64,000 bases of DNA from assembly GCF_058153355.1 (NCBI RefSeq), contig NZ_CM177019.1; one strand, written 5' to 3'. This document shows, piece by piece, positions 8,333 through 61,497 of this stretch. Made by a program: the position numbers and the translations under genes. Numbering within the stretch: the stretch's first letter is position 1; every line of letters begins with the position of its first letter. The notes under the pieces were generated by a model. That model did no database searches, had not been told where the DNA came from, and saw only the letters and a list, made by a program, of their open reading frames with translations.

Positions 8333-9888
<1,556 letters not shown>

Positions 9889-9897
9889 AATTTCATC

Positions 9898-9921
9898 GGG
9901 TCCGAATTTTCGGACCTTTTC
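9898..9921 (+). terminator. ampC rho-independent terminator
   Basis: GGGTCCGAA-TTTT-CGGACC hairpin followed by TTTTCT. Confidence 0.7.
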
Positions 9922-9976
9922 TCCGCTTTTCCTTGCTGTCATCTACACTTAGAAAAAAACCAGTAAGGAAACATTT

Positions 9977-10510
9977 ATGCGCCTGCTCCCTCTCGTTGCC
10001 GCAGCGACAGCTGCATTTCTGGTCGTTGCCTGCAGTTCTCCTACGCCGCCGCGTGGCGTGACAGTAGTGAATAATTTCGACGCCAAACGTTATCTCGGTA
10101 CCTGGTATGAGATTGCCCGTTTTGATCACCGCTTTGAACGTGGACTGGAAAAAGTCACCGCAACATACAGTCTGCGGGATGATGGCGGCCTGAATGTCAT
10201 TAATAAAGGCTATAATCCTGACAGAGAAATGTGGCAGCAGAGTGAAGGGAAAGCGTACTTTACCGGCGCACCAACTCGCGCTGCGCTGAAAGTGTCATTC
10301 TTTGGCCCTTTCTATGGCGGCTATAACGTCATTGCACTTGATCGGGAATACCGCCATGCGCTGGTTTGCGGCCCGGACCGCGACTACCTGTGGATACTCT
10401 CCCGCACGCCAACCATTTCTGACGAAGTGAAACAGGAGATGCTGGCAGTCGCGACCCGGGAAGGGTTTGATGTCAGTAAGTTTATTTGGGTACAGCAGCC
10501 CGGTAGTTAG
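9977..10510 (+). CDS. blc: Outer membrane lipoprotein Blc (bacterial lipocalin)
   Basis: 177-aa ORF with lipobox LVVAC|SS and lipocalin signature …[24 protein letters not shown]…. Confidence 0.95.
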
Positions 10511-10824
10511 TGAGTGCTGAGTTTCAGACCAATAATCCCCAATACGATTAACGCCAGGCTCGCCAGGCGCATCGGGTTAGCGGACTCACCGAGCAGCACA
10601 ATACCGGTGATGGCCGCGCCGACTGCGCCAATACCCGTCCACACGGCATAAGCCGTCCCTACCGGTAGCGATTTCATCGCCCAGGCAAGTAGCGCCATAC
10701 TGACAATCATCGCCGTCACGGTAATAACACTTGGCGTCAAACGACTAAAGCCGTGGGTATATTTCAGGCCAACGGCCCATACCACTTCCAGCAGGCCAGC
10801 AATAACTAAGATAATCCAGGACAT
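10507..10824 (-). CDS. gdx: SMR-family guanidinium exporter Gdx (SugE), 105 aa
   Basis: [26 protein letters not shown]… four-TM SMR protein; ORF-track frame trimmed to this Met. Confidence 0.93.
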
Positions 10825-10998
10825 ATCAGGCTCCGGAGAATTGGGGCCGTCCCCGGTGAAAAGAGGCGTTTGCAGGTCGTCCTGCAAAGCTGATGGTTGA
10901 ACGGGTATTTTGCCAGGTGGCAGGGGAATTTCAACTATTACCTTAGTGACTATCGCAAAAAAACAAACGGCACGACACAGCTGTCGTACCGTTATTGC

Positions 10999-11145
10999 TT
11001 ACTGCTGCGCTTTCGTTGCTGCGCCAGAAATCGCGTTACCGCCATCAGAAATGTCTTCACCAACGCCACGCGTGGTGTTGCAAGCAGTTAATACTGTTGA
11101 AAGCACCAGAACAGAAAAGATCGCTGCAATTGTCTTCTTCACCAT
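10999..11145 (-). CDS. ecnB: Entericidin B lipoprotein (48 aa)
   Basis: Hand-translated minus-strand [51 protein letters not shown]; lipobox LTAC; below the ORF-track size cutoff. Confidence 0.9.
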
Positions 11146-11255
11146 AACGTCTTCCTTTTAGGTAATGTTATTTATGTTTGCCTATAGCAAATTAATAATA
11201 GACAACATCGCCAAAAATGACGGAAATCTGATGATTTTTCGGAAGAGAAGAAAAA

Positions 11256-11381
11256 CTAGCTGGCAGCGCGGGAGATTGAGTTGCCGAGATGTTTGATATC
11301 TTCGCCGAAACCGCGAGCGGTATTACAGCCCGTGAGCAGCGTGCTGGCAAGCAAAACAAGAACGATAAGGCGTTTCATCAT
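11256..11381 (-). CDS. ecnA: Entericidin A lipoprotein (41 aa)
   Basis: Hand-translated minus-strand [44 protein letters not shown]; lipobox LTGC; paralogous to ecnB. Confidence 0.9.
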
Positions 11382-11432
11382 CTCTGACCAGAATAAGTGA
11401 TGGTGCAGCCAACAGGCCGCACCAAAACCGCA

Positions 11433-11999
11433 TTACTTCACGCGAGAGACGTATTCACCAGAGCGGGTATCCACTTTGATGACTTCTCCGATCTGTACGA
11501 ACAGCGGAACTTTAACCACTGCACCAGTAGACAGGGTAGCCGGTTTGCCGCCAGTACCTGCGGTATCCCCTTTCAGGCCTGGATCGGTATCAACGATTTC
11601 CAGTTCAACAAAGTTCGGCGGAGTAACGGAGATCGGCTGACCATTCCACAGAGTTACGATACACTCTGCCTGATCCAGCAACCATTTGGCGTTGTCGCCA
11701 ATTGCTTTTGCATCAGCAGACAGTTGCTCGAAAGTTTCGTTGTTCATGAAGTGCCAGAACTCACCGTCGTTGTACAGGTAAGTCAGGTTCATATCGACAA
11801 CATCAGCGCCTTCAGCGGAATCAGTAGATTTGAAGGTTTTTTCTACGCGAGTACCGGTCAGCAGACGACGCAGTTTAACGCGAGCAAATGCCTGGCCTTT
11901 ACCCGGTTTTACGAATTCACTCGCTTCAACCGCGTAAGGTTCGCCGTCTAACATGATTTTAAGACCAGCACGAAAATCGTTGCTATAGTACGTTGCCAT
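11433..11999 (-). CDS. efp: Translation elongation factor P
   Basis: 188-aa [45 protein letters not shown]… including the modified-lysine loop KPGKGQA. Confidence 0.97.
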
Positions 12000-12040
12000 A
12001 AGGCCCTCTGAAATTTGTTAATTGGTAGCTAAGCCACAAA

Positions 12041-13069
12041 ATGGCGCATATTGTAACCCTAAATACCCCATCCAGAGAAGATTGGTTAACGCAACTTGCC
12101 GATGTTGTGACCGATCCTGATGAACTTCTGCGTCTTTTGAATATAGACGCGGACGAAAAACTGTTGGCCGGACGCAGCGCCAAAAAGCTGTTTGCCCTGC
12201 GTGTGCCCCGCTCATTTATCGATCGCATGGAGAAAGGCAATCCGGACGATCCACTTTTGCGTCAGGTACTTACCTCGCAAGATGAGTTTGTCGTCGCGCC
12301 CGGATTCTCCACCGACCCGCTGGAAGAACAGCACAGCGTAGTGCCAGGTTTGTTGCATAAATACCACAACCGGGTGCTTTTGCTGGTCAAAGGCGGCTGC
12401 GCGGTAAATTGCCGCTATTGCTTTCGTCGCCATTTCCCGTATGCCGAAAATCAGGGCAACAAGCGTAACTGGCAGACTGCACTTGAGTATGTTGCTGCGC
12501 ATCCGGAACTGGACGAGATGATTTTCTCCGGCGGCGATCCGCTGATGGCGAAAGATCACGAGCTGGACTGGTTGCTTACACAACTGGAAGCCATCCCGCA
12601 TATCAAACGTCTGCGGATTCACAGCCGTCTGCCGATTGTGATCCCGGCACGCATCACAGATGCGCTGGTTGAACGCTTTTCACATTCTACGCTGCAAATC
12701 TTGCTGGTGAATCACATCAACCATGCCAATGAGGTAGATGAAACATTCCGCCAGGCGATGGCTAAGTTGCGCCGGGTAGGCGTTACTTTGCTGAACCAGA
12801 GCGTTCTGTTACGTGGTGTGAATGATAACGCACAAACGCTGGCAAACCTGAGTAATGCGTTGTTCGATGCGGGCGTGATGCCGTATTACCTGCATGTGCT
12901 CGATAAAGTACAGGGCGCGGCGCATTTTATGGTGAGTGATGACGAAGCACGGCAGATTATGCGTGAGCTGCTGACGCTGGTATCTGGATATATGGTGCCG
13001 AAACTGGCGCGCGAGATTGGCGGCGAACCCAGTAAAACGCCACTGGATCTCCAGCTACGTCAGCAGTAA
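12041..13069 (+). CDS. epmB: EF-P beta-lysylation protein EpmB (lysine 2,3-aminomutase-like radical SAM enzyme)
   Basis: 342-aa ORF; radical-SAM motif CAVNCRYCFRR; divergent from efp. Confidence 0.95.
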   Translation: MAHIVTLNTPSREDWLTQLADVVTDPDELLRLLNIDADEKLLAGRSAKKLFALRVPRSFIDRMEKGNPDDPLLRQVLTSQDEFVVAPGFSTDPLEEQHSVVPGLLHKYHNRVLLLVKGGCAVNCRYCFRRHFPYAENQGNKRNWQTALEYVAAHPELDEMIFSGGDPLMAKDHELDWLLTQLEAIPHIKRLRIHSRLPIVIPARITDALVERFSHSTLQILLVNHINHANEVDETFRQAMAKLRRVGVTLLNQSVLLRGVNDNAQTLANLSNALFDAGVMPYYLHVLDKVQGAAHFMVSDDEARQIMRELLTLVSGYMVPKLAREIGGEPSKTPLDLQLRQQ

Positions 13070-13303
13070 CTGATTAAACAGGGAAGTTTAATCTTTGCAC
13101 GTTGCATAACCTTTAATTATTCATATACATTGCTGTTATTACTTTTTATATAACCAACACCAATAATTAACCTTTCTTTTCTGTTTATATAGAGTGAGCA
13201 CGGCTATTTATGTTATTTTAACAACTATTACTACCAAGCCCATTTATCTGGCTTATAAATTAAAATTAATTATTTAATTGAGAAATGGTTAGGGAGAACC
13301 TAC

Positions 13304-14173
13304 ATGGCCATAAGCATCAAGGGAGTTAATACCGGTGTTATTCGCAAGAGTAATAATTTCATTGCACTGGCGCTGAAAATTAAAGAGCCTCGCAATAAAG
13401 AATCGTTGTTCTTTCTGTCTGTCATGGAACTGCGCGACCTGCTGATTGCGCTGGAAAGCCGTCTGCATCAAAAGCATAAACTGGATGCTGCAGCACGCCT
13501 TCAGTATGAGCAAGCTCGCGATAAAGTCATTAAGAAAATGGCAGAAAATATCCCAGAAATTCTGGTTGATGAGCTTAAAAATGCCGATATTAATCGTCGA
13601 GTTAACACGCTGGAACTTACCGATAATCAGGGTGAAAATCTTACCTTCGTATTAACGCTACATGACGGTAGCAAATGTGAGTTAGTCATCAATGAATTGC
13701 AGATTGAAATGCTGGCGCGAGCAATCATTCATGCAATTAATAATGCGGAAATGCGTGAACTGGCATTACGTATTACCTCACTGTTAGATTTCCTGCCGTT
13801 ATACGACGTTGACTGCCAGGACAATGGCAATCTGGAATATGACACCTATTCCCAACCGGAATGGAAACATAACTTGTTCAACCATTATCTGGCAGTGCTT
13901 TATCGCTTTAAAGATGAAAATGGCAAAGAACAATTTAGCGGCGCAGTGGTGAAAACGCGTGAAGCAACGCCGGGTAAAGAAGTGGAGGCGATCACTCGCC
14001 GAATGCTTGATTTCAGCCCACGACTGAAAAAACTCGCGGGTGTACCATGTCAGGTATATGTTCGCACCGTAGCAGCAAATAACGCCCAACCGCTAACCCA
14101 GGATCAATGCTTACGCGCGCTACATCACTTACGTGTTCAGTCCATCAGCAAAAGTGCACCACAAGCGAAATAA
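13304..14173 (+). CDS. yjeJ: Uncharacterized protein YjeJ (289 aa)
   Basis: ORF MAISIKGVNTGVIRKSNNFIALALKIK…; preceded by about 220 bp of very AT-rich DNA. Confidence 0.8.
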   Translation: MAISIKGVNTGVIRKSNNFIALALKIKEPRNKESLFFLSVMELRDLLIALESRLHQKHKLDAAARLQYEQARDKVIKKMAENIPEILVDELKNADINRRVNTLELTDNQGENLTFVLTLHDGSKCELVINELQIEMLARAIIHAINNAEMRELALRITSLLDFLPLYDVDCQDNGNLEYDTYSQPEWKHNLFNHYLAVLYRFKDENGKEQFSGAVVKTREATPGKEVEAITRRMLDFSPRLKKLAGVPCQVYVRTVAANNAQPLTQDQCLRALHHLRVQSISKSAPQAK

Positions 14174-14222
14174 TCTCATCTTTGCTAATGCGAGGCTGGA
14201 GTCATCCAGCCTCTGAATCACA

Positions 14223-14576
14223 TCAATTCGGGCACTTATATACCTGGCCGATAATCTGGCTATCCGTCGGGACAAAACTGGACAACATTCCCTGCGACGG
14301 GCTGCTGATACCATAAATCACGTTACCACCCATTGCCGCTGCCTGGTTGCGCAGATCGTTTGCCGCACCACGCATAGAACCGCCTTCTTCACCGTGTTGC
14401 CCGGAAAGCCAGTTACTTTGCTTACCTGTCGCAGTACCAATCAGCTGGCACTCTGCGCCTGGCTGCTCGTCCACAATGCGTACACTCTGACCGGCAGCAC
14501 TCAATTCGTTGCTGGAGCTACAACCCGCCATCAGTAGCGCGGCACCGACAATCCCTGCTAAGTATTTTACGTGCAT
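14223..14576 (-). CDS. yjeI: Lipoprotein YjeI (117 aa)
   Basis: MHVKYLAGIVGAALLMAGCSSS… lipobox; ORF-track frame trimmed to this Met. Confidence 0.85.
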   Translation of the reverse strand: MHVKYLAGIVGAALLMAGCSSSNELSAAGQSVRIVDEQPGAECQLIGTATGKQSNWLSGQHGEEGGSMRGAANDLRNQAAAMGGNVIYGISSPSQGMLSSFVPTDSQIIGQVYKCPN

Positions 14577-14654
14577 GTTATTCCCCATAATCAATGAGCT
14601 GGACGCCACTCGCGTCGTCCGTGTCTGAATCTTATACTAGAAAGATGACTAAAA

Positions 14655-14690
14655 GAAAAACCCCCAGACATTTCTGCCCGGGGGTTTGTT
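14655..14690 (-). terminator. groESL rho-independent terminator
   Basis: Minus-strand read gives a CCCCC…GGGGG stem followed by TTTTTCTTTT just downstream of groL stop. Confidence 0.6.
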
Positions 14691-14713
14691 TATTTCTGCG
14701 AGTTGCAGGGCAA

Positions 14714-16372
<1,659 letters not shown>

Positions 16373-16403
16373 TTAAATTCGTATGTTCAGTGTCGTGCGC
16401 GGA

Positions 16404-16748
<345 letters not shown>

Positions 16749-16774
16749 TTACGTGGTTTCCCGGCTGGTGACCA

Positions 16775-16810
16775 GAGAAATGGGGGTGAGGCTTCGCCCC
16801 TTCAAGGGGG
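16775..16810 (-). promoter_or_regulatory. sigma-32 heat-shock promoter of groESL
   Basis: Minus-strand read: CCCCCTTGAA (-35) … 14 nt … CCCCATTTCT (-10), matching the sigma-32 consensus CTTGAA / CCCCATnT. Confidence 0.8.
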
Positions 16811-16972
16811 AAAATGAAAAAAAATTCTGATCAGCACAAAATCGGGTGAAAACACTGATTCACCTCACATTTCATCGCAATTTATTCATCGCCGTCATAA
16901 GCGAATCTGATTGTGCTACCATCGAAAATCTACGCAGTTGCCCAAGATTTGGGCGCAATCGGACATCAACCC

Positions 16973-18229
16973 ATGAGTGGACTCAAACAAGAACTGGGGC
17001 TGGCCCAGGGCATCGGCCTGCTATCGACGTCATTATTAGGCACTGGCGTGTTTGCCGTTCCTGCGTTAGCTGCACTGGTAGCAGGCAATACCAGCCTGTG
17101 GGCATGGCCCGTTTTGATTATCTTAGTGTTCCCGATTGCAATTGTGTTTGCGATTCTGGGTCGCCACTATCCCAGTGCAGGCGGCGTCGCACACTTCGTC
17201 GGTATGGCGTTTGGTTCGCGGCTTGAGCGAGTCACCGGCTGGTTATTTTTATCGGTCATTCCCGTGGGTTTACCTGCCGCGCTACAAATTGCTGCCGGGT
17301 TCGGCCAGGCGATGTTTGGCTGGCATAGCTGGCAACTGTTGTTATCAGAACTCGGTACGCTGGCGTTGGTGTGGTATATCGGTACTCGCGGTGCCAGTTC
17401 CAGTGCTAATCTACAAACGGTCATTGCCGGGCTTATCGTCGCGCTGATTGTCGCTATCTGGTGGGCGGGCGATATCAAACCTGCGAATATCCCCTTCCCT
17501 GCACCTGGTAATATCGAACTTACCGGGTTATTTGCTGCGTTATCAGTGATGTTCTGGTGCTTTGTCGGTCTGGAAGCATTTGCCCATCTTGCCTCGGAAT
17601 TTAAAAATCCAGAGCGTGATTTTCCTCGCGCGTTGATGATTGGTCTGCTGCTGGCAGGATTAGTCTACTGGGGCTGTACGGTAGTCGTCTTACACTTCGA
17701 CGCCTACGGTGAAAAAATGGCAGCGGCAGCATCGCTTCCAAAAATTGTGGTGCAGCTGTTCGGTGTAGGGGCGTTATGGATTGCCTGCGTGATTGGCTAT
17801 CTGGCCTGCTTTGCCAGTCTCAACATTTATATACAGAGCTTCGCCCGCCTGGTCTGGTCGCAGGCGCAACATAATCCTGACCACTACCTGGCACGCCTCT
17901 CTTCTCGTCATATCCCGAATAATGCCCTCAATGCGGTGCTCGGCTGCTGCGTGGTGAGCACGTTGGTGATTCATGCTTTAGAGATCAATCTGGACGCACT
18001 TATCATCTATGCCAATGGCATCTTTATTATGATTTATCTGTTATGCATGCTGGCAGGTTGTAAATTATTGCAAGGACGTTATCGACTACTGGCGGTGGTT
18101 GGCGGGCTGTTATGCGTTCTGTTACTAGCAATGGTCGGCTGGAAAAGTCTCTATGCGCTGATCATGCTGGCGGGGTTATGGCTGTTTCTGCCAAAACGAA
18201 AAACGCCGGAAAATGGCATAACCACATAA
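16973..18229 (+). CDS. yjeH: APC-family amino acid (L-methionine) exporter YjeH (418 aa)
   Basis: MSGLKQELGLAQGIGLLSTSLLGTGVFAVPALAA…; ORF-track frame trimmed to this Met. Confidence 0.9.
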   Translation: MSGLKQELGLAQGIGLLSTSLLGTGVFAVPALAALVAGNTSLWAWPVLIILVFPIAIVFAILGRHYPSAGGVAHFVGMAFGSRLERVTGWLFLSVIPVGLPAALQIAAGFGQAMFGWHSWQLLLSELGTLALVWYIGTRGASSSANLQTVIAGLIVALIVAIWWAGDIKPANIPFPAPGNIELTGLFAALSVMFWCFVGLEAFAHLASEFKNPERDFPRALMIGLLLAGLVYWGCTVVVLHFDAYGEKMAAAASLPKIVVQLFGVGALWIACVIGYLACFASLNIYIQSFARLVWSQAQHNPDHYLARLSSRHIPNNALNAVLGCCVVSTLVIHALEINLDALIIYANGIFIMIYLLCMLAGCKLLQGRYRLLAVVGGLLCVLLLAMVGWKSLYALIMLAGLWLFLPKRKTPENGITT

Positions 18230-18244
18230 TCCGGCGTTTCGGCA

Positions 18245-18721
18245 TTAATCCTGGCGATCGTCTTTATGATCAAGGCGGTCGCGCTCATCATCCTTTCGCT
18301 GGTACTCACCATCAAAAGTATTACCGCCACCGGTCCCGGCGCTAAAACCGCCGCCTGGCATGCGAGAAAAGCGCAAATGCGGCATCAACTTCACTGTCAG
18401 ATGCTTTTGCACCGGCGGTAATAAAAGCAGAAGACCGAGGAAGTCGGTGAAAAAGCCCGGTAATAAAAGCAGCAAACCGGCAATGATCAGCGAAACACTT
18501 TTAATCATCTCCGCCGCTGGGTTTTCACCTGCCGCCATTTTTTGCTGCATCAGCACGAAATTCTTAAAGCCCTGGTTACGTACCAGTGACATACCAATAA
18601 CTGACGTGAATATAACCAGCACGAGGGTCAGCAATACCCCCAATACATGGGCAACCTGAATAAAGATTGAAATCTCAATATAGACATAAAGGAAAATGGC
18701 AATAAAAGGTAACCAGCGCAA
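18245..18721 (-). CDS. fxsA: Inner membrane protein FxsA (suppressor of F exclusion of phage T7)
   Basis: 158-aa ORF MRWLPFIAIFLYVYIEISIFIQVAHVLGVLL… with acidic C-terminal tail. Confidence 0.93.
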   Translation of the reverse strand: MRWLPFIAIFLYVYIEISIFIQVAHVLGVLLTLVLVIFTSVIGMSLVRNQGFKNFVLMQQKMAAGENPAAEMIKSVSLIIAGLLLLLPGFFTDFLGLLLLLPPVQKHLTVKLMPHLRFSRMPGGGFSAGTGGGNTFDGEYQRKDDERDRLDHKDDRQD

Positions 18722-19057
18722 AGGTTTCTCCTGTAATAGCAGCCGGTTAAACCCGGCTACCTGAATGGGTTGCGAATCGCGTTCAGCTTATATTGTGGTC
18801 ATTAGCAAAATTTCAAGATGTTTGCGCAACTATTTTTGGTAGTAATCCCAAAGCGGTGATCTATTTCACAAATTAATAATTAAGGGGTAAAAACCGACAC
18901 TTAAAGTGATCCAGATTACGGTAGAAATCCTCAAGCAGCATATGATCTCGGGTATTCGGTCGATGCAGGGGATAATCGTCGGTCGAAAAACATTCGAAAC
19001 CACATATATTCTGTGTGTTTAAAGCAAATCATTGGCAGCTTGAAAAAGAAGGTTCAC

Positions 19058-25464: not shown

Positions 25465-27003
25465 ATGCAACAACCTGTAGTTCGCGTTGGCGAATGGCTT
25501 GTTACTCCGTCCATAAACCAAATTAGCCGCAATGGGCGTCAACTTACCCTTGAGCCGAGATTAATCGATCTTCTGGTTTTCTTTGCTCAACACAGTGGCG
25601 AAGTACTTAGCAGGGATGAACTTATCGATAATGTCTGGAAGAGAAGTATTGTCACCAATCACGTTGTGACGCAGAGTATCTCAGAACTACGTAAGTCATT
25701 AAAAGATAATGATGAAGATAGTCCTGTCTATATCGCTACTGTACCAAAGCGCGGCTATAAATTAATGGTGCCGGTTATCTGGTACAGCGAAGAAGAGGGA
25801 GAGGAAATAATGCTATCTTCGCCTCCCCCTATACCAGAGGCGGTTCCTGACACAGATTCTCCCTCCCAAAGTCTTAACATTCAAAACACCGCAACACCAC
25901 CTGAACAATCCCCAGTTAAAAGCAAACGATTCACTACCTTTTGGGTATGGTTTTTTTTCCTGTTGTCGTTAGGTATCTGTGTAGCACTGGTAGCGTTTTC
26001 AAGTCTTGATACACGTCTTCCTATGAGCAAATCGCGTATTTTGCTCAATCCACGCGATATTGACATTAATATGGTAAATAAAAGTTGTAACAGCTGGAGT
26101 TCCCCGTATCAGCTCTCTTACGCGATAGGCGTGGGTGATTTGGTGGCGACATCACTTAACACCTTCTCCACCTTTATGGTGCATGACAAAATCAACTACA
26201 ACATTGATGAACCGAGCAGTTCCGGTAAAACATTATCTATTGCGTTTGTTAATCAGCGCCAATACCGTGCTCAACAATGCTTTATGTCGGTAAAATTGGT
26301 AGACAATGCAGATGGTTCAACCATGCTGGATAAACGTTATGTCATCACTAACGGTAATCAGCTGGCGATTCAAAATGATTTACTGGAGAGTTTATCAAAA
26401 GCGTTAAACCAACCGTGGCCACAACGAATGCAGGAGATGCTCCAGCAAATTTTGCCTCATCGTGGTGCGTTATTAACTAATTTTTATCAGGCACATGATT
26501 ATTTACTGCATGGCGATGATAAATCATTGAACCGTGCCAGTGAATTACTAGGTGAGATTGTTCAATCATCCCCCGAATTTACCTACGCGAGAGCAGAAAA
26601 AGCATTAGTTGATATCGTGCGCCATTCTCAACATCCTTTAGATGAAAAACAATTAGCAGCACTGAATACAGAAATAGATAACATTGTTACACTGCCGGAA
26701 TTGAACAACCTGTCCATTATATATCAAATAAAAGCGGTCAGTGCTCTGGTAAAAGGTAAAACAGATGAGTCTTACCAGGCGATAAATACTGGCATTGATC
26801 TTGAAATGTCCTGGCTAAATTATGTGTTGCTTGGCAAGGTTTATGAAATGAAGGGGATGAACCGGGAAGCAGCTGATGCATATCTCACCGCCTTTAATTT
26901 ACGCCCAGGGGCAAACACCCTTTACTGGATTGAAAATGGTATATTCCAGACTTCTGTTCCTTATGTTGTACCTTATCTCGACAAATTTCTCGCCTCAGAA
27001 TAA
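25465..27003 (+). CDS. cadC: Membrane-integrated pH-responsive transcriptional activator CadC (ToxR-like)
   Basis: 512-aa ORF MQQPVVRVGEWLVTPSINQISRNGRQLTLEPRLIDLLVFF… winged-helix OmpR-like N-domain, single TM, periplasmic sensor. Confidence 0.97.
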   Translation: MQQPVVRVGEWLVTPSINQISRNGRQLTLEPRLIDLLVFFAQHSGEVLSRDELIDNVWKRSIVTNHVVTQSISELRKSLKDNDEDSPVYIATVPKRGYKLMVPVIWYSEEEGEEIMLSSPPPIPEAVPDTDSPSQSLNIQNTATPPEQSPVKSKRFTTFWVWFFFLLSLGICVALVAFSSLDTRLPMSKSRILLNPRDIDINMVNKSCNSWSSPYQLSYAIGVGDLVATSLNTFSTFMVHDKINYNIDEPSSSGKTLSIAFVNQRQYRAQQCFMSVKLVDNADGSTMLDKRYVITNGNQLAIQNDLLESLSKALNQPWPQRMQEMLQQILPHRGALLTNFYQAHDYLLHGDDKSLNRASELLGEIVQSSPEFTYARAEKALVDIVRHSQHPLDEKQLAALNTEIDNIVTLPELNNLSIIYQIKAVSALVKGKTDESYQAINTGIDLEMSWLNYVLLGKVYEMKGMNREAADAYLTAFNLRPGANTLYWIENGIFQTSVPYVVPYLDKFLASE

Positions 27004-27129
27004 GTGACTCCCGGGTTGACTCATGCTCGAGAATATTTGTTGTTGATTTTTTGTATGTTATTGTTGGTATAATATGTTGCGGCAATTTATTTGCCGCATA
27101 ATTTTTATCACATAAATTTAACCATGGAA

Positions 27130-27340
27130 TATTCTGCAATCTATTGTAAACATTGAATGTTTATCTTTTCATGATATCAACTTGCGATCCTGATGTGTTA
27201 ATAAAAAACCTCAAGTTCTCACTTACAGAAACTTTTGTGTTATTTCACCTAATCTTTAGGATTAATCTTTTTTTTTGAGTAATCTTGTCGCCAGTTTGGT
27301 CTGGTCAGTAAATAGTTACGCATCATGACCCGGACTCCAA
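27130..27340 (+). promoter_or_regulatory. cadBA promoter (Pcad) region with expected CadC binding sites
   Basis: AT-rich intergenic region between cadC stop and cadB start; individual sites not resolved by eye. Confidence 0.4.
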
Positions 27341-27367
27341 ATTCAAAAATGAAATTAGGAGAAGAGC

Positions 27368-30987: not shown

Positions 30988-32445
30988 ATGAAAACACCCT
31001 CACAGCCGCGCGCGATATACTATATCGTGGCGATCCAAATCTGGGAGTACTTCAGTTTTTACGGCATGCGTGCCTTACTCATTCTCTATCTCACCCATCA
31101 GCTTGGTTTTGATGATAACCATGCCATCAGCCTGTTCAGCGCATATGCATCTCTGGTTTACGTTACCCCTATTCTCGGCGGCTGGCTTGCCGACCGCCTG
31201 CTCGGCAATCGTACTGCGGTAATTGCCGGCGCGCTGTTAATGACCCTTGGCCATGTAGTGCTGGGCATTGATACAAATTCAACCTTTAGCCTGTATCTGG
31301 CGCTGGCAATCATTATTTGTGGCTACGGTTTATTCAAATCAAACATCAGCTGTTTGCTTGGCGAGCTCTACGACGAGAACGATCATCGACGTGATGGCGG
31401 TTTTTCGCTGCTGTATGCTGCGGGCAATATCGGTTCTATCGCAGCCCCCATCGCCTGCGGTCTGGCTGCTCAGTGGTATGGATGGCATGTTGGCTTTGCC
31501 CTTGCGGGTGGTGGCATGTTTATCGGTTTGTTGATTTTCTTAAGCGGTCATCGTCATTTCCAGTCAACGCGTAGTATGGATAAAAAAGCGCTCACTCGCG
31601 TGAAATTTGCCTTACCGGTATGGAGCTGGTTAGTGGTGATGCTCTGTTTAGCCCCAGTATTTTTTACCCTGCTGCTGGAGAACGACTGGTCCGGATATTT
31701 GCTGGCGATCGTTTGCCTTATTGCTGCACAAATCATTGCCCGCATGATGATCAAATTCCCCGAACACCGCCGTGCTCTTTGGCAAATTGTATTGTTGATG
31801 TTTGTCGGGACGTTGTTCTGGGTACTGGCACAACAGGGTGGCAGTACCATCAGCTTGTTTATCGATCGCTTTGTGAATCGTCAGGCATTCAATATTGAAG
31901 TACCTACTGCACTATTCCAGTCAGTGAACGCAATTGCGGTGATGCTCGCTGGGGTTGTTCTGGCCTGGCTGGCGTCGCCAGAAAGCCGCGGCAATTCAGC
32001 ATTGCGCGTCTGGCTGAAGTTTGCCTTTGGCTTACTGCTGATGGCTTGTGGCTTTATGTTGCTGGCATTTGATGCCCGACATGCAGCGGCTGGCGGTCAA
32101 GCGTCAATGGGCGTGATGATATCCGGGCTGGCGCTAATGGGCTTTGCTGAACTCTTTATTGACCCGGTGGCGATTGCGCAAATCACGCGTCTGAAAATGT
32201 CTGGCGTATTAACCGGTATTTATATGCTGGCAACAGGCGCGGTCGCCAACTGGCTGGCAGGCGTCGTGGCACAGCAGACGACAGAGTCGCAAATTAGCGG
32301 TATGGCAATTGCAGCTTACCAGCGATTCTTTTCTCAGATGGGAGAGTGGACGTTGGCTTGTGTCGCGATCATCGTGGTATTGGCCTTTGCTGTCCGTTTT
32401 CTGTTTAGCACGCCGACGAATATGATACAGGAGAGCAACGATTAA
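30988..32445 (+). CDS. dtpC: Dipeptide/tripeptide:H+ symporter DtpC (YjdL), POT family
   Basis: 485-aa [39 protein letters not shown]… (POT-family signature). Confidence 0.95.
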
Positions 32446-32681
32446 CTGTCGTAAAAACAATTGGTTATGAATAAATTAACTTTCAGTTTATCACACTAAT
32501 AAATCGAGATTAATAAGTCATTTAAACCATTTTGATGGTTATTTATTAGTGATATCAACTTGAGGTAAGCGTTAGTTTCGATAAGATAAACTGAGTTATT
32601 AATAGTCGAGGCAGATAATACAGTGTACCGATCTGTCTCTTTATCTACGCTAAATTGAAAGCTGGATTTAGAGGAACCAAA

Positions 32682-34199
32682 ATGTCTGAACGAGAAACAC
32701 GGGGAGCCAATGAGGCTATTGATTTTAACGATGAACTGAGAAATCGCCGCGAAAAACTGGCGGCACTGCGTCAGCAAGGTGTGGCGTTTCCTAATGATTT
32801 TCGCCGCGACCATACCTCTGACCAGTTGCACGAAGAGTTTGATGCGAAGGATAACCAGGAACTGGAATCCTTAAACATTGAAGTCTCGGTTGCTGGCCGA
32901 ATGATGACCCGTCGTATCATGGGGAAAGCCTCCTTTGTAACGTTGCAGGATGTCGGTGGCCGTATTCAACTGTACGTTGCACGAGATAGCCTGCCAGAAG
33001 GTGTTTATAACGATCAGTTTAAAAAATGGGACCTCGGCGACATTATCGGTGCCCGCGGTACGCTGTTTAAGACGCAAACTGGTGAGCTTTCCATTCACTG
33101 TACTGAGTTACGCCTGCTGACTAAGGCACTGCGTCCATTGCCGGATAAATTCCATGGCTTACAGGATCAGGAAGTCCGTTATCGTCAACGTTATCTGGAC
33201 CTCATCGCTAACGATAAATCCCGTCAAACGTTTGTTGTCCGTTCAAAAATTCTGGCCGCTATCCGTCAGTTCATGGTCGCTCGCGGTTTTATGGAAGTAG
33301 AAACCCCAATGATGCAGGTAATTCCAGGTGGGGCATCTGCTCGCCCGTTTATTACCCATCATAATGCTCTGGATTTGGATATGTACCTGCGTATTGCGCC
33401 GGAGCTATATCTGAAACGTCTGGTTGTAGGTGGTTTTGAACGGGTATTCGAAATCAACCGTAACTTCCGTAATGAAGGTATTTCTGTTCGTCATAATCCT
33501 GAGTTCACGATGATGGAACTCTACATGGCGTATGCGGATTACCACGATTTGATTGAACTGACGGAATCACTGTTCCGCACTCTGGCACAAGAGGTACTGG
33601 GTACCACTAAAGTCACTTATGGCGAGCATGTGTTTGATTTCGGCAAACCGTTTGAAAAACTCACCATGCGCGAAGCAATCAAAAAATATCGTCCAGAAAC
33701 CGATATGGCGGACCTGGATAATTTTGATGCTGCTAAAGCATTAGCTGAATCTATCGGAATTACGGTAGAGAAAAGCTGGGGGCTGGGACGCATTGTCACG
33801 GAGATCTTTGATGAAGTGGCAGAAGCACATCTGATTCAGCCAACCTTTATCACGGAATATCCGGCAGAAGTGTCACCGCTGGCGCGCCGTAATGATGTTA
33901 ACCCGGAAATCACCGACCGTTTTGAATTCTTCATCGGTGGTCGTGAAATCGGTAATGGTTTTAGCGAATTAAACGACGCAGAAGATCAGGCTGAACGTTT
34001 CCAGGAACAGGTTAACGCTAAAGCTGCAGGTGACGACGAAGCCATGTTCTATGACGAAGATTACGTGACTGCGCTGGAATATGGTCTGCCGCCAACCGCG
34101 GGTCTGGGTATTGGTATCGACCGAATGATTATGCTGTTTACTAACAGTCATACTATTCGCGACGTTATTCTCTTCCCGGCGATGCGTCCACAGAAATAA
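32682..34199 (+). CDS. lysU: Lysyl-tRNA synthetase, heat-inducible isoform LysU (505 aa)
   Basis: [33 protein letters not shown]…; class II aaRS motifs; assigned to lysU rather than lysS by synteny with cadA/dtpC. Confidence 0.95.
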
Positions 34200-40561: not shown

Positions 40562-41131
40562 CGGATCGCTGGTTATCTGTAAGTAATAATTATTACCGTA
40601 ATGCAAAATACCCCTGGCACAAGTTACATCGTTCATCAGTAAAACTTGTGCCAGATCAAATATAATTATCCCTCCATCATCGCTAAAAATTAATATCTCT
40701 TCAGGTGAACGGTGTTTTTAATTTCAAAACGCTAACAAAAGTTAATTAACTATTATGTCACCCACATTATGTATATTTTTACCCACAAATGGGTAGATCA
40801 GATTAATCTATAAACCTAATGATATCTGCCCTGAGAACAAAAAACAGACCGATAAATATCAATAAGATAACAGCAAACAAAACATTAACATCTGCGTAGT
40901 ACAAACTATAAACCCATCGCCAGAGAGTATTTCTCTCTGAAAAAACCGCTTATCACAGTGCATAAATTTGCCGCTGCTTTAATCAGCCAATATTCACTGT
41001 GAGGTATTTACTCAAGCCGGTAACGACCAAACGGATATTTAGTCAAGCTCTGAAAACAGTTCATACAAAACAGAACGTGACTGTGATCTATTCAGCAAAA
41101 ATTTAAATAGGATTATCGCGAGGGTTTACAC

Positions 41132-50301: not shown

Positions 50302-51063
50302 ATGAGGATTTGCAGCGACCAACCTTGTATTGTCTTATTGACTGAAAAAGATGTCTGGATAAGGGTGAATGGGAAAGAACCTATTAGCCTTAAAGCTAAC
50401 CATATGGCGTTATTAAATTGTGAAAATAATATTATCGACGTCTCCTCTCTTAATAACACTTTGGTTGCTCATATTAGTCACGACATCATCAAAGATTACC
50501 TCCGGTTTCTGAATAAAGATCTCTCGCAAATACCAGTATGGCAACGTAGTGCTACGCCCATCCTCACCCTGCCATGCCTGACGCCAGACGTCTTTCGCGT
50601 TGCCGCGCAACATAGCATGATGCCCGCTGAAACTGAGTCAGAAAAGGAACGAACACGTGCATTATTATTCACTGTGCTATCCCGTTTTCTCGACAGTAAA
50701 AAATTCCTTTCATTAATGATGTATATGTTACGTAATTGTGTAAGTGACAGCGTTTATCAAATTATTGAAAGCGATATCCACAAAGACTGGAATCTTAGTA
50801 TGGTAGCCAGTTGTTTATGTCTTAGCCCAAGTCTGTTAAAGAAAAAGCTGAAAAGCGAAAACACCAGTTATAGCCAAATAATCACCACCTGCCGCATGCG
50901 TTATGCCGTCAATGAATTAATGATGGACGGTAAAAATATCTCTCAGGTCTCACAGTCGTGTGGCTACAACAGTACGTCGTACTTTATTTCTGTCTTTAAA
51001 GACTTCTACGGTATGACGCCTCTGCATTATGTTAGTCAGCACAGAGAACGCACTGTCGCCTGA
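50302..51063 (+). CDS. adiY: AraC-family regulator AdiY
   Basis: 253-aa ORF MRICSDQPCIVLLTEKDVWIRVNGKEPI…; AT-rich upstream region. Confidence 0.95.
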   Translation: MRICSDQPCIVLLTEKDVWIRVNGKEPISLKANHMALLNCENNIIDVSSLNNTLVAHISHDIIKDYLRFLNKDLSQIPVWQRSATPILTLPCLTPDVFRVAAQHSMMPAETESEKERTRALLFTVLSRFLDSKKFLSLMMYMLRNCVSDSVYQIIESDIHKDWNLSMVASCLCLSPSLLKKKLKSENTSYSQIITTCRMRYAVNELMMDGKNISQVSQSCGYNSTSYFISVFKDFYGMTPLHYVSQHRERTVA

Positions 51064-58871: not shown

Positions 58872-61096
58872 TATCGTTCTGCCGTGAAAAGTGTTTGAAT
58901 ATCATCGCGTAACAGCTGAGCGTCGATGTAAATCCAGCCATGAGTCATCACAGTCTGCTGCAATTGCTGCTGCATCAGCCTGACCACCGATTCATTTTGT
59001 TGACGCAGAGCCAGACTTTCGCGTAAACGCGTCTGTAATTCCGTCAAACATGAAGCGAACTCAGCGAAAAAAGTATTCATGCCTGCCGTAACAGATTCAT
59101 CGACCTGCTCTGCCAGAACTTTAGCCATTTGTTGGCAATAAAGATCGACTTCTGCGCTTAATGCTCGTTGCAACGCACTGTAATCAACCGTCTCTATCGG
59201 GGATTTCTCATTTCCCCGTCCCCAGTCGGGCTGATTCAACCAGCGCGAAAAAGTCTCACGCACAACGCCTAAACGCGTGCTCTGCTCGTCCATTGCGTCC
59301 TGGCGCGAAATGACTTCACTGAACAGCTGGCGAGTGTTGAAGTGGGGAACTGCGCCGTGAAAAACAGGAAAATGAAACCCAGGACGAAACCCTGACTCGC
59401 TCAATTCCATTTTGACTTGTTGCTCAATGGGCCGAATAACATCGGTTAACACCCGGCAAAGAGTGGATTCAAGCTCGGCAAAACGCAGCGTAAAGTCGCG
59501 ACTGATGGTGTTCTGCGCCGTCTGTAACAGTGTCTCACAGCAGGTACGAATCTCGCTTAATGACCCCGAATCATCCTGAAACAACGCGGCTAACTGGGCA
59601 TTCACCGCATCTTGCTGTTGACGCAGAAAGAGGTTGGCGGAGGTCAGGGCCAGCTCGATTTCATGTTTAATCTCGCCGCTCACCTGAGCCTGATTGAGTT
59701 GAAATAGCTGCAAACTTTCTTCGATCTGGTGGATATTTTGCCGCAATTGTTCACAAGCGACGTTTAACCCGTGCGCACGAAAATCCAGGTATTCCCGCGC
59801 CTGCTGCGCGTAATTCAACAGTTTATGCGCGGCAGATCGCAGAGCATACAACGAGGCGTTAGCGTAAGCGGCATGAAGCAACGCCTGAATTGGCTGGGCG
59901 AACAGCGAATCTTCCCACAACTGATCGGCAGCATGACGAATATGTTCGAGGTCCGCCAGGTCGGCATGACGCCAGCGCCTGCCGAGCGCGGCATGGGCAA
60001 AATCCTCCACCCAGCGTTGTTGCTCTGGCGCGGGTAACTTACCGTTGTTGGCTAACTCATTACGCGCCCGATTCGCCAGGTAGCCCCACATCGACGACAC
60101 TGGAAATATCTGCTGTGGCGTAATACAGCCTTTCATCAGCGTCCCGGAAATCAGTGCCCGCACCTGGTCGGCGTCGTCACTGTTACGATCCTGTTGATCG
60201 AACTTATTGACCAGCACATACAGCGGCACCGATTGCCCCACCGCCAAAATCGCCTCACGGACCTCTTCATCGGAGATCGATTTCAGTTGCGTATAATCCA
60301 GCACCGCCAGTACCGCCGAGGCGCGAGCCAGCTGCTGGTTAAGCATTTTTTGCAGATGCGGTTGCCCGGCTTCATTTGGCCCAGGGGTATCCAGTAACGT
60401 CAACTGACCGGGATAACTCTCCAGCCCCGCCAGATGGACAAACTCCACTTCAATCACGGGAATATGCTCAATGGCGGCGTAAGCAGAAAAAGGAAAATCG
60501 ACGTCCAGCGCCTTCGCCAGTCGCACCAAATCATTCAAACTTTTCAGACAATGAAAAATAGGCTGGGCACCCAGATAATATTTTTCGAAAGCGACGCCAT
60601 TTTCGATCCGCAGCATAAGCGCACGCATATCTTTATCTATTTCCAGCACATCGGTCAGATGCTTAATATCGCAGTCACGCAGGCGCTGTTGTAATTGTTG
60701 AATTAAACAGTCGATTGGCGCGACATGTGAAAAATGCAGTACCGGTTCTTTTTGCCCGGGCGTATGGCGAATAAGCGTCGGCAGCGCAGTCATTGGGCGA
60801 TTGCGATTAGGCAGAACCTCCGTACCAACAATGGCATTAATGGTGGTTGATTTCCCTGCTTTCATAGTACCGACAATCGCCAGCACCATTTCCAGTCGGG
60901 AAATTTTACGCAACTCATTATTCAGCATCGCGTGACGTTCGGCGATATTAGGCTGACTCCAGGGTAAAGCCAGTTGTGGCGCATCGTCTCCGGGTACAGA
61001 GAGAGGCATTTTTTCCAGTAACTGCAACTGTTGGCGAGAAAGCTGTAACAGGCGTTCAGCCTCCTGACTTAACTCATACAGGGTCTGTGTGTACAT
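58868..61096 (-). CDS. crfC: Dynamin-like GTPase CrfC (YjdA)
   Basis: 742-aa ORF with P-loop GTMKAGKST and DTPG motif; MYTQTLYELSQEAERLLQLSRQQLQLLEKMP…. Confidence 0.93.
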   Translation of the reverse strand: MYTQTLYELSQEAERLLQLSRQQLQLLEKMPLSVPGDDAPQLALPWSQPNIAERHAMLNNELRKISRLEMVLAIVGTMKAGKSTTINAIVGTEVLPNRNRPMTALPTLIRHTPGQKEPVLHFSHVAPIDCLIQQLQQRLRDCDIKHLTDVLEIDKDMRALMLRIENGVAFEKYYLGAQPIFHCLKSLNDLVRLAKALDVDFPFSAYAAIEHIPVIEVEFVHLAGLESYPGQLTLLDTPGPNEAGQPHLQKMLNQQLARASAVLAVLDYTQLKSISDEEVREAILAVGQSVPLYVLVNKFDQQDRNSDDADQVRALISGTLMKGCITPQQIFPVSSMWGYLANRARNELANNGKLPAPEQQRWVEDFAHAALGRRWRHADLADLEHIRHAADQLWEDSLFAQPIQALLHAAYANASLYALRSAAHKLLNYAQQAREYLDFRAHGLNVACEQLRQNIHQIEESLQLFQLNQAQVSGEIKHEIELALTSANLFLRQQQDAVNAQLAALFQDDSGSLSEIRTCCETLLQTAQNTISRDFTLRFAELESTLCRVLTDVIRPIEQQVKMELSESGFRPGFHFPVFHGAVPHFNTRQLFSEVISRQDAMDEQSTRLGVVRETFSRWLNQPDWGRGNEKSPIETVDYSALQRALSAEVDLYCQQMAKVLAEQVDESVTAGMNTFFAEFASCLTELQTRLRESLALRQQNESVVRLMQQQLQQTVMTHGWIYIDAQLLRDDIQTLFTAERY

Positions 61097-61497
61097 AGAA
61101 AATTTTTCCTTAAAGCAAATTTTATTACTTTTATTTAGCCAGATTGTTTTTGAGTTCTGTTTTCGGCTTTTATAATTACTGCAAGAAATAATTTTATATT
61201 TAGAGTGTTGTTTTTTATTAGAATAAATAACGTCTTCCGATACGTTTAAAATGTCAGAAAGATAAAAATATCATTTGAATTAAAAAAAGAACAAGTAGAG
61301 CATTAACCTTATCTTAAATAATAAATGGAGGCAAAAAGATTATTTTCTTTTTGCGTTTCCTTTCAAATGAAAACGATCGTCGTCTAAAATCAGCAGTACC
61401 CCCGACAAACTCAGGGATTTTGTGTATAATTGCGGCCTTTTTCGGCAATCTGCCGTTTTTTGGCGCTTTTGCCCTGCTGACTTTTGAGGAAATCCAC

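Follow-up and report, generated by a model that had tools for sequence, protein, structure and literature searches.

Partial repression of AT-rich promoter regions by H-NS is common in E. coli. Among the described systems of this kind (cadBA, proU, bgl, hdeAB), the cad locus is an accepted H-NS target, and it also lies in the stretch of DNA that we analyse here, a 64,000-nucleotide segment of an Escherichia coli chromosome (hereafter the window, with positions counted from its first letter). We ask how a second site in the same window, the AT-rich spacer between epmB and yjeJ, compares with such systems. The reading that we favour, and hold to be reasonably probable, is that this block serves yjeJ as promoter and untranslated leader, that it is partly repressed by H-NS, and that it is an old resident of the chromosome and not a recent import.

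The genes of the region run in the order blc, sugE, ecnBA, efp, epmB, yjeJ, yjeI, groL, groS, yjeH, with efp (11433-11999) and groL (14714-16360) both on the minus strand. Upstream of the block lies epmB (yjeK; 12041-13069, plus strand), a core gene of normal GC content identified by its open reading frame (ORF), its Radical_SAM domain and the annotation of matching E. coli genomes; its stop codon (13067-13069) is the left edge of the block. The spacer between this stop codon and the ATG of yjeJ at 13304 measures 234 bp (13070-13303). The ORF at 13304-14173 (plus strand, 289 aa) is yjeJ, a GC-poor and fast-evolving gene recognised by a full-length match to the YjeJ family (Pfam PF15922, E = 8.9e-174). 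On the right the unit is bounded by the convergent yjeI (14223-14609, minus strand), GC-normal and lipoprotein-like by its ORF and DUF4156 domain match. The strain itself differs by about 1.2% from the closest complete genome of the collection and by 2-3.5% from K-12, efp and epmB included; these distances indicate that its lineage is thinly represented, that is, poorly sampled, among complete E. coli genomes.

A sequence-only reading of this DNA had proposed that the block upstream of yjeJ is roughly 80% A+T, that this signature is typical of H-NS-silenced or horizontally acquired DNA, and that the surrounding core genes are more GC-rich. The block is real, although its A+T content had been overstated: we measure 71.9% over 13080-13300 and 71.8% over the whole spacer. 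The A+T-rich string which that reading quoted begins at 13117. The richest 50-bp window of the spacer (13242-13291) reaches 84% A+T and the richest windows of 100-150 bp reach 75-76%. Compared with all 221-bp windows of the 64 kb (mean 50.1% A+T, sd 6.0), the block stands at z = 3.6, in the top 0.34%, and the spacer ranks first among the 34 intergenic regions with a length of 60 bp or more, followed by spacers of 69.5, 69.1 and 67.0%. A+T contents of at least 70% occur at four other places in the window as well (near 27030, 32440, 40684 and 61100), and the peak near 61100, at 77%, exceeds that of the block. The block is thus the top of a continuum and no outlier. The density of TpA steps is three-fold that of the whole window (0.142 vs 0.048). 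Three of the other AT-rich places extend over approximately 61040-61434 (the one that reaches 77% near 61100), 32440-32685 and 40650-40912, and a second GC-poor ORF, at 41% GC, lies at 50302-51063.

The gene shares this tendency in milder form. The GC content of yjeJ is 44.4%, and its GC content at third codon positions (GC3) is 43.1%, compared with 51.1 ± 3.4% and 56.3 ± 6.0% for the 48 ORFs of the window; both values are about 2 sd low. The flanking genes are indeed more GC-rich (epmB 52.7%, yjeI 54.1% GC). Codon usage is core-like in one respect and not in the other: against a reference set made of the local groL, groS and efp, the codon adaptation index (CAI) of yjeJ is 0.37, equal to the window mean of 0.37 and 31st from the bottom among 45 genes, whereas GC3 is low.

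Next we consider the evidence for regulation by H-NS. Published RNA measurements in K-12 show that yjeJ rises in a delta-hns strain relative to wild type with a log2 fold change of +2.32 (logCPM 6.5, P = 8.7e-9), while the neighbouring epmB does not change (-0.20; Forrest et al. 2022, PMC8894471, Supplementary Data 2). The same table shows hdeAB, bglG, gadE, csgD, proVWX and cadBC moving in the same direction as yjeJ, contains mal, tna and mgl genes that are altered indirectly, and lists yjeJ as 55% A+T and 'horizontally acquired: no' (PMC8894471). A+T content is above average over both promoter and gene, at 71.8% for the spacer and 55.6% for the gene body compared with 50.1% for the window. 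The dependence of yjeJ on H-NS that the sequence-only reading had suggested is therefore borne out at the RNA level, at about 5-fold, but the word 'silenced' is too strong: because YjeJ protein is quantified in wild-type K-12 grown in LB (PMC9508795), the gene is damped and not silent. A separate study names yjeJ as a Nac-regulated gene whose expression falls under prolonged nitrogen starvation (PMC7417836), and genomic SELEX of minor sigma factors places a holoenzyme-binding peak inside yjeJ, at K-12 coordinate 4371850, in the heat-shock sigma section (PMC5493296).

The cad locus serves as a positive control inside the window. This second AT-rich region of the window, cadC together with the cadC-cadB spacer (25465-27367), resembles the yjeJ unit in composition, with 58% A+T in cadC and 67% in the spacer; deletion of hns derepresses cadB and cadC, and SELEX marks the cadBA spacer for H-NS. 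Near-matches to the high-affinity nucleation motif of H-NS, TCGATAAATT, cluster in cadC (about 11), and there is no match at up to two mismatches in 13070-13303. A published list of 987 H-NS SELEX sites likewise marks the cadBA spacer and leaves the epmB-yjeJ spacer unmarked (Shimada et al. 2014, PMC3946193). In the accessible portions of H-NS supplementary tables (Srinivasan 2015, Higashi 2016, Freddolino 2021, Cooper 2024 and a 2025 bridging preprint) yjeJ does not appear, and a search of the full-text literature for b4145 returned unrelated papers only.

These comparisons leave room for a different account of the same expression data, in which the block is an ordinary AT-rich promoter that H-NS does not bind directly and the delta-hns effect is secondary, passing through released regulators such as LeuO or RpoS-linked factors. 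The missing SELEX mark and motif match speak for it, as do the small size of the block (just 234 bp) and the modest 55.6% A+T of the gene, the presence of YjeJ in wild-type cells, the three other spacers of the window that are almost equally AT-rich, and the indirect changes of mal, tna and mgl in the very table that reports yjeJ. The derepression could be indirect. Against this, the unaffected expression of epmB makes the effect local to the yjeJ unit, which in both composition and TpA density resembles the window's cad locus. We regard this secondary route as doubtful, and take direct contact of H-NS with the yjeJ unit to be a plausible inference.

The origin of the block is a separate question, which we address through its distribution. 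Of 5426 complete E. coli genomes, 5425 match a 1.4-kb query that spans the 3' end of epmB, the spacer, yjeJ and the 3' end of yjeI, and in 5381 the match covers 80% of the query or more, so that within the species yjeJ is as good as universal. The divergence of the block and yjeJ from K-12-like, O157 and MFDS1022581 genomes is 0-3.5%, equal to that of efp, epmB, yjeI and groL; the distance from K-12 and O157 is 2-3.5%, again the same as for the flanks, and MFDS1022581 has the block with 100% identity. Because this divergence equals that of the flanks, the block and yjeJ share the history of the strain. Insertions do occur at the borders of the unit: aligning K-12 to the window reveals a 160-bp REP/BIME insertion directly after the epmB stop codon, and in K-12-type strains REP/BIME-like insertions flank the AT block plus yjeJ on both sides (+160 bp after the epmB stop, +153 bp after the yjeJ stop). 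O157 has an insertion after the yjeJ stop only (+143 bp), and the window strain and MFDS1022581 have neither. The second insertion point, on the 3' side of yjeJ, corresponds to 14173-14222 in the window.

Beyond the species, we scanned one genome per species with a profile built from 8 sequences and found 45 loci. The order efp-epmB-yjeJ-yjeI-groL-groS holds in all 44 that are long enough to display the flanks; the 45th, a 1.4-kb contig filed under Bacillus, stands outside this count. The syntenic loci come from at least 12 genera: Escherichia, Citrobacter, Pseudocitrobacter, Kluyvera, Superficieibacter, Salmonella, Trabulsiella, Intestinirhabdus, Yokenella, Kosakonia, Phytobacter and Pluralibacter. 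A YjeJ of 59% identity is present in Salmonella enterica subsp. enterica and subsp. houtenae. Taken as a comparison of sequences and gene order, this indicates that yjeJ was resident between epmB and yjeI before the lineages of Escherichia, Citrobacter, Salmonella and Kluyvera split. We also looked for transfer of yjeJ between genera, and found no pair of loci with low EpmB and high YjeJ identity; the only incongruence is an allele in two Citrobacter strains, NCU1 and Awk4, described below. Loci of E. coli-like or enterobacterial type turn up in assemblies labelled Bacillus coahuilensis, a Bacteroidales MAG and Chryseobacterium sp., and such out-of-group records are probably contamination or mislabelling in public databases.

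Within Enterobacterales the composition and surroundings of yjeJ vary. The gene stays GC-poor in Escherichia, the C. freundii group, Salmonella, Kosakonia and Phytobacter, and it has a normal GC content of 50-54% in Kluyvera, C. sedlakii, Yokenella and Intestinirhabdus, so low GC is no fixed trait of the family. A deeply divergent second allele class, seen in five fetched loci, occupies the same slot with a short leader, about 50% GC and a spacer that is not AT-rich; in the short-leader group the A+T content upstream of the gene is just 43-54%. The YjeI of Citrobacter sp. NCU1 and Awk4 is 96-97% identical to that of other Citrobacter, while their YjeJ is only 41-42% identical and is closest to that of Enterobacteriaceae RIT691 (63%), a pattern that could reflect allele replacement or ancient polymorphism. 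The family is Enterobacterales-only and small: 1.84 billion proteins contain 99 clusters of it at 50% identity, with members in Budvicia, Atlantibacter, Klebsiella and Kosakonia as well as on plasmids of Serratia. Plasmids of E. coli of about 30 kb (e.g. pLAU-OXA4) carry a 163-aa version directly behind genes for a ParF-like ATPase and ParG, and in Serratia MOBP plasmids of 46-57 kb a full-length copy adjoins a Tn3 transposase. What the epmB-yjeI interval contains varies among other genera: an MCP gene separates yjeJ from yjeI in Kosakonia and Phytobacter, a DUF4132 gene separates epmB from yjeJ in C. youngae, and in Klebsiella (Klebsiella pneumoniae) yjeJ is surrounded by a wHTH gene, a gene for a peptidase-ABC transporter and a fimbrial operon.

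These observations bear on whether the block and yjeJ are the remnant of an ancient horizontally acquired cassette that an ancestor of the Enterobacteriaceae took up between epmB and yjeI and that has retained its AT-richness, possibly under the cover of H-NS. Such an origin is compatible with our preferred reading and differs from it on origin alone. It is consistent with the GC and GC3 of yjeJ (44% and 43%, compared with 51% and 56% in the window), with the recurrence of low GC from Escherichia, the C. freundii group and Salmonella to Kosakonia and Phytobacter, with the tiny Enterobacterales-only family and its plasmid-borne relatives in Serratia and E. coli, and with an interval that accepts other accessory genes (MCP, DUF4132, ABC transporter and fimbrial). 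However, the CAI of yjeJ is exactly average, the gene has normal GC in Kluyvera, C. sedlakii, Yokenella and Intestinirhabdus, the locus is free of mobility genes, tRNA and border repeats, and no donor lineage was found outside Enterobacterales. An ancient acquisition is possible, and we treat this account of the origin as tentative and somewhat unlikely.

A much younger origin, in which the block and yjeJ form a recently acquired and strain-variable genomic islet, is very improbable: the contrast in base composition with the flanks is all that suggests it, and the distribution, the synteny across at least 12 genera, the flank-like divergence with complete identity to MFDS1022581, and the published classification of yjeJ as not horizontally acquired (PMC8894471) contradict it. 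The surroundings bear no mark of mobility either, with no tRNA in 9000-19000, no flanking direct repeats around the AT block and yjeJ, and no integrase or mobility-gene ORFs near yjeJ in the ORF list of the window. Since the unit is near-universal in E. coli, syntenic, diverged like its flanks and devoid of such marks, the comparative data exclude recent acquisition, and horizontal acquisition, as the sequence-only reading had raised it, does not hold as a recent event.

What the block does as an old resident is best seen from the parts of it that are conserved. In an alignment of 16 taxa the spacer is mostly unalignable between genera, and two conserved islands survive. The first, of the form T(A/G)TG-n-TAyTTTA, is TGTTATTTT at 13211-13219 (plus strand); it reads TG-T-TATTTT, combines TGn with a -10 hexamer that has A2 and T6, and is likely, as an extended -10 element, to be the core promoter of yjeJ. 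Scanning 36 loci for the pattern TGnTAyTTy, we find it in 27, counting both leader groups together. The element lies 85-105 nt upstream of the start codon in most genera. The pattern occurs once, with its first base 91-104 nt ahead of the ATG, in Escherichia, Citrobacter, Pseudocitrobacter, Kluyvera, Trabulsiella, Yokenella, Kosakonia and Phytobacter; in the short-leader group it starts 36-56 nt before the ATG; Salmonella, Superficieibacter and Intestinirhabdus show no match to it. The second island, GGTTAGGGAGAACC (13287-13300, plus strand), is the ribosome-binding context; it lies 3-4 nt before the ATG and is nearly invariant across genera while the remaining leader diverges. Judged by the position of the extended -10 element, transcription would start near 13226, giving a predicted AT-rich leader of about 78 nt (13226-13303, plus strand). 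This leader folds at -16.4 kcal/mol, with z = 0.03 against shuffled sequences, that is, with no significant RNA structure.

A different promoter had been proposed for the same spacer. An RpoD-holoenzyme SELEX-chip peak lies between epmB and yjeJ, with yjeJ listed among 'constitutive promoters' (Shimada et al. 2014, PMC3946193), and Table 2 of that study predicts the sigma-70 promoter TTAACC-17-TAGAGT, which is found within the peak at 13167-13195 (plus strand; TTAACC at 13167, TAGAGT at 13190). The peak shows that the holoenzyme binds without an activator, at a resolution that cannot separate the two candidate promoters (PMC3946193). Because the spacer alignment shows the pair TTAACC-17-TAGAGT to be kept within Escherichia only, we consider the extended -10 element the more likely core promoter of the two. 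A generic promoter and terminator scan reported no promoter site of at least 9/12 in the spacer.

Several smaller elements complete the description of the spacer. A perfect 8-bp AU-rich inverted repeat, GATTAAAC-N6-GTTTAATC followed by TTTG, occupies 13072-13093 (plus strand) and may be a weak terminator of epmB; the terminator scan did not call it. Two ATA-N9-TAT patterns, with the spacing of Nac-type sites, lie at 13106-13120 and 13125-13139 (no strand assigned). They are 2 of the 10 matches in the window, in a place where we estimate about 0.5 from local composition; in such AT-rich DNA they are no more than a weak lead towards Nac, which may bind at the yjeJ promoter. A 27-codon ORF with a GTG start (13194-13277) overlaps the promoter. 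We considered the small ORFs of the block as genes and rejected them, as they are not conserved across genera, and we also dropped the idea of a hairpin at the Shine-Dalgarno sequence (GGTT/AACC), to which the minimum-free-energy fold gave no support. A search of 12000-15000 against Rfam at E <= 1 gave no relevant match. That the block hides a small RNA, a small protein or a mobile repeat in place of a promoter is hardly credible: the GTG ORF and several short AT-rich inverted repeats hint at it, whereas that ORF sits across the promoter in sequence that is unalignable between genera, Rfam is silent, the leader folds no better than its shuffles and the REP/BIME elements of K-12 are absent from the window.

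Now we assemble the preferred reading, that of a partly H-NS-repressed promoter and leader of a resident gene, into a possible sequence of events. Sigma-70 RNA polymerase would bind the epmB-yjeJ spacer without helper factors and would begin transcription near 13226 from the extended -10 element; the resulting leader of about 78 nt would end in the conserved Shine-Dalgarno context. The TpA-rich DNA at the promoter and on its upstream side, along with the moderately AT-rich gene body (55.6% A+T), would make the 1.1-kb unit a plausible substrate for H-NS, which would cut yjeJ mRNA about 5-fold without silencing the gene. Nac may contribute nitrogen-dependent control.

The product of the gene offers a further, looser lead. 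Outside Escherichia, YjeJ is 40-76% identical between genera, compared with 83-94% for EpmB and 96-99% for GroL, which indicates that YjeJ evolves much faster than its neighbours. An AlphaFold model from a 25-sequence alignment is confident (pLDDT 93.5, pTM 0.88) and predicts repeated modules of four strands plus a helix. Foldseek places PURA entries at the top in probability, with all E-values at or above 0.03, high rmsd and none significant. The family profile has no match in the PDB at E <= 1, PADLOC assigns YjeJ to no defence family, PHROGs yield one weak partial match (E = 0.008), and a fold search of BFVD returns nothing significant. The modelled fold is a lead towards nucleic-acid binding and gives no classification. 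One could speculate that YjeJ is a nucleic-acid-binding protein of PUR/Whirly-like repeats limited to Enterobacterales, an accessory DNA- or RNA-handling factor under an AT-rich promoter sensitive to H-NS and Nac, given its fast evolution, its deeply divergent alleles in a single chromosomal slot and the short plasmid paralogues behind parF/parG; this proposal is unlikely as it stands, and if it were true the yjeJ promoter would govern, for example, a factor that interacts with plasmids or foreign DNA and no housekeeping protein.

Taken together, the epmB-yjeJ region is an ordinary regulatory region that is largely catalogued in published SELEX and RNA-seq tables, and it carries little weight for genome biology at large. 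The main gain is a correction: base composition by itself hinted at foreign DNA, and yjeJ proves to be an old resident by its distribution, synteny and divergence. For the study of yjeJ itself there are two leads, namely a phylogenetically conserved extended -10 element that differs from the published prediction, and a structural model of high confidence that comes closest, though weakly, to PUR/Whirly nucleic-acid binders.

It remains to set the locus beside the known systems that it recalls. Genomic islands and xenogeneic DNA are like yjeJ in that its GC and GC3 fall below those of the flanks, its family is narrow, copies occur on plasmids and the interval is variable in other genera; they are unlike it in that yjeJ comes without tRNA, integrase or border repeats, is present in essentially all E. 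coli, combines synteny and divergence that point to long vertical descent, and has average codon adaptation. The candidate likeness of YjeJ to PUR-alpha and Whirly folds comes from the model; YjeJ lacks sequence similarity to them and is roughly double a PUR domain in size. A closer comparison is with extended -10 (TGn) sigma-70 promoters. As in these promoters, the yjeJ element has a TG one base upstream of a TAnnnT hexamer and no recognisable -35 element at 17 bp, and within the upstream spacer it is the only conserved block; unlike them, its hexamer TATTTT agrees with the consensus at 4 of 6 positions, and the published prediction had picked another -35/-10 pair. In comparison with H-NS-repressed promoters such as cadBA, proU, bgl and hdeAB, the yjeJ block differs in being short (234 bp) beside a gene that is only mildly AT-rich, and in having neither a high-affinity motif match nor an H-NS SELEX mark; its repression is about 5-fold with protein present in wild type, and the gene is conserved and syntenic, not strain-specific. 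Like these promoters, that of yjeJ is rich in AT and TpA and stands beside a GC-poor gene, RNA polymerase binds it unaided, and its mRNA rises when hns is deleted.
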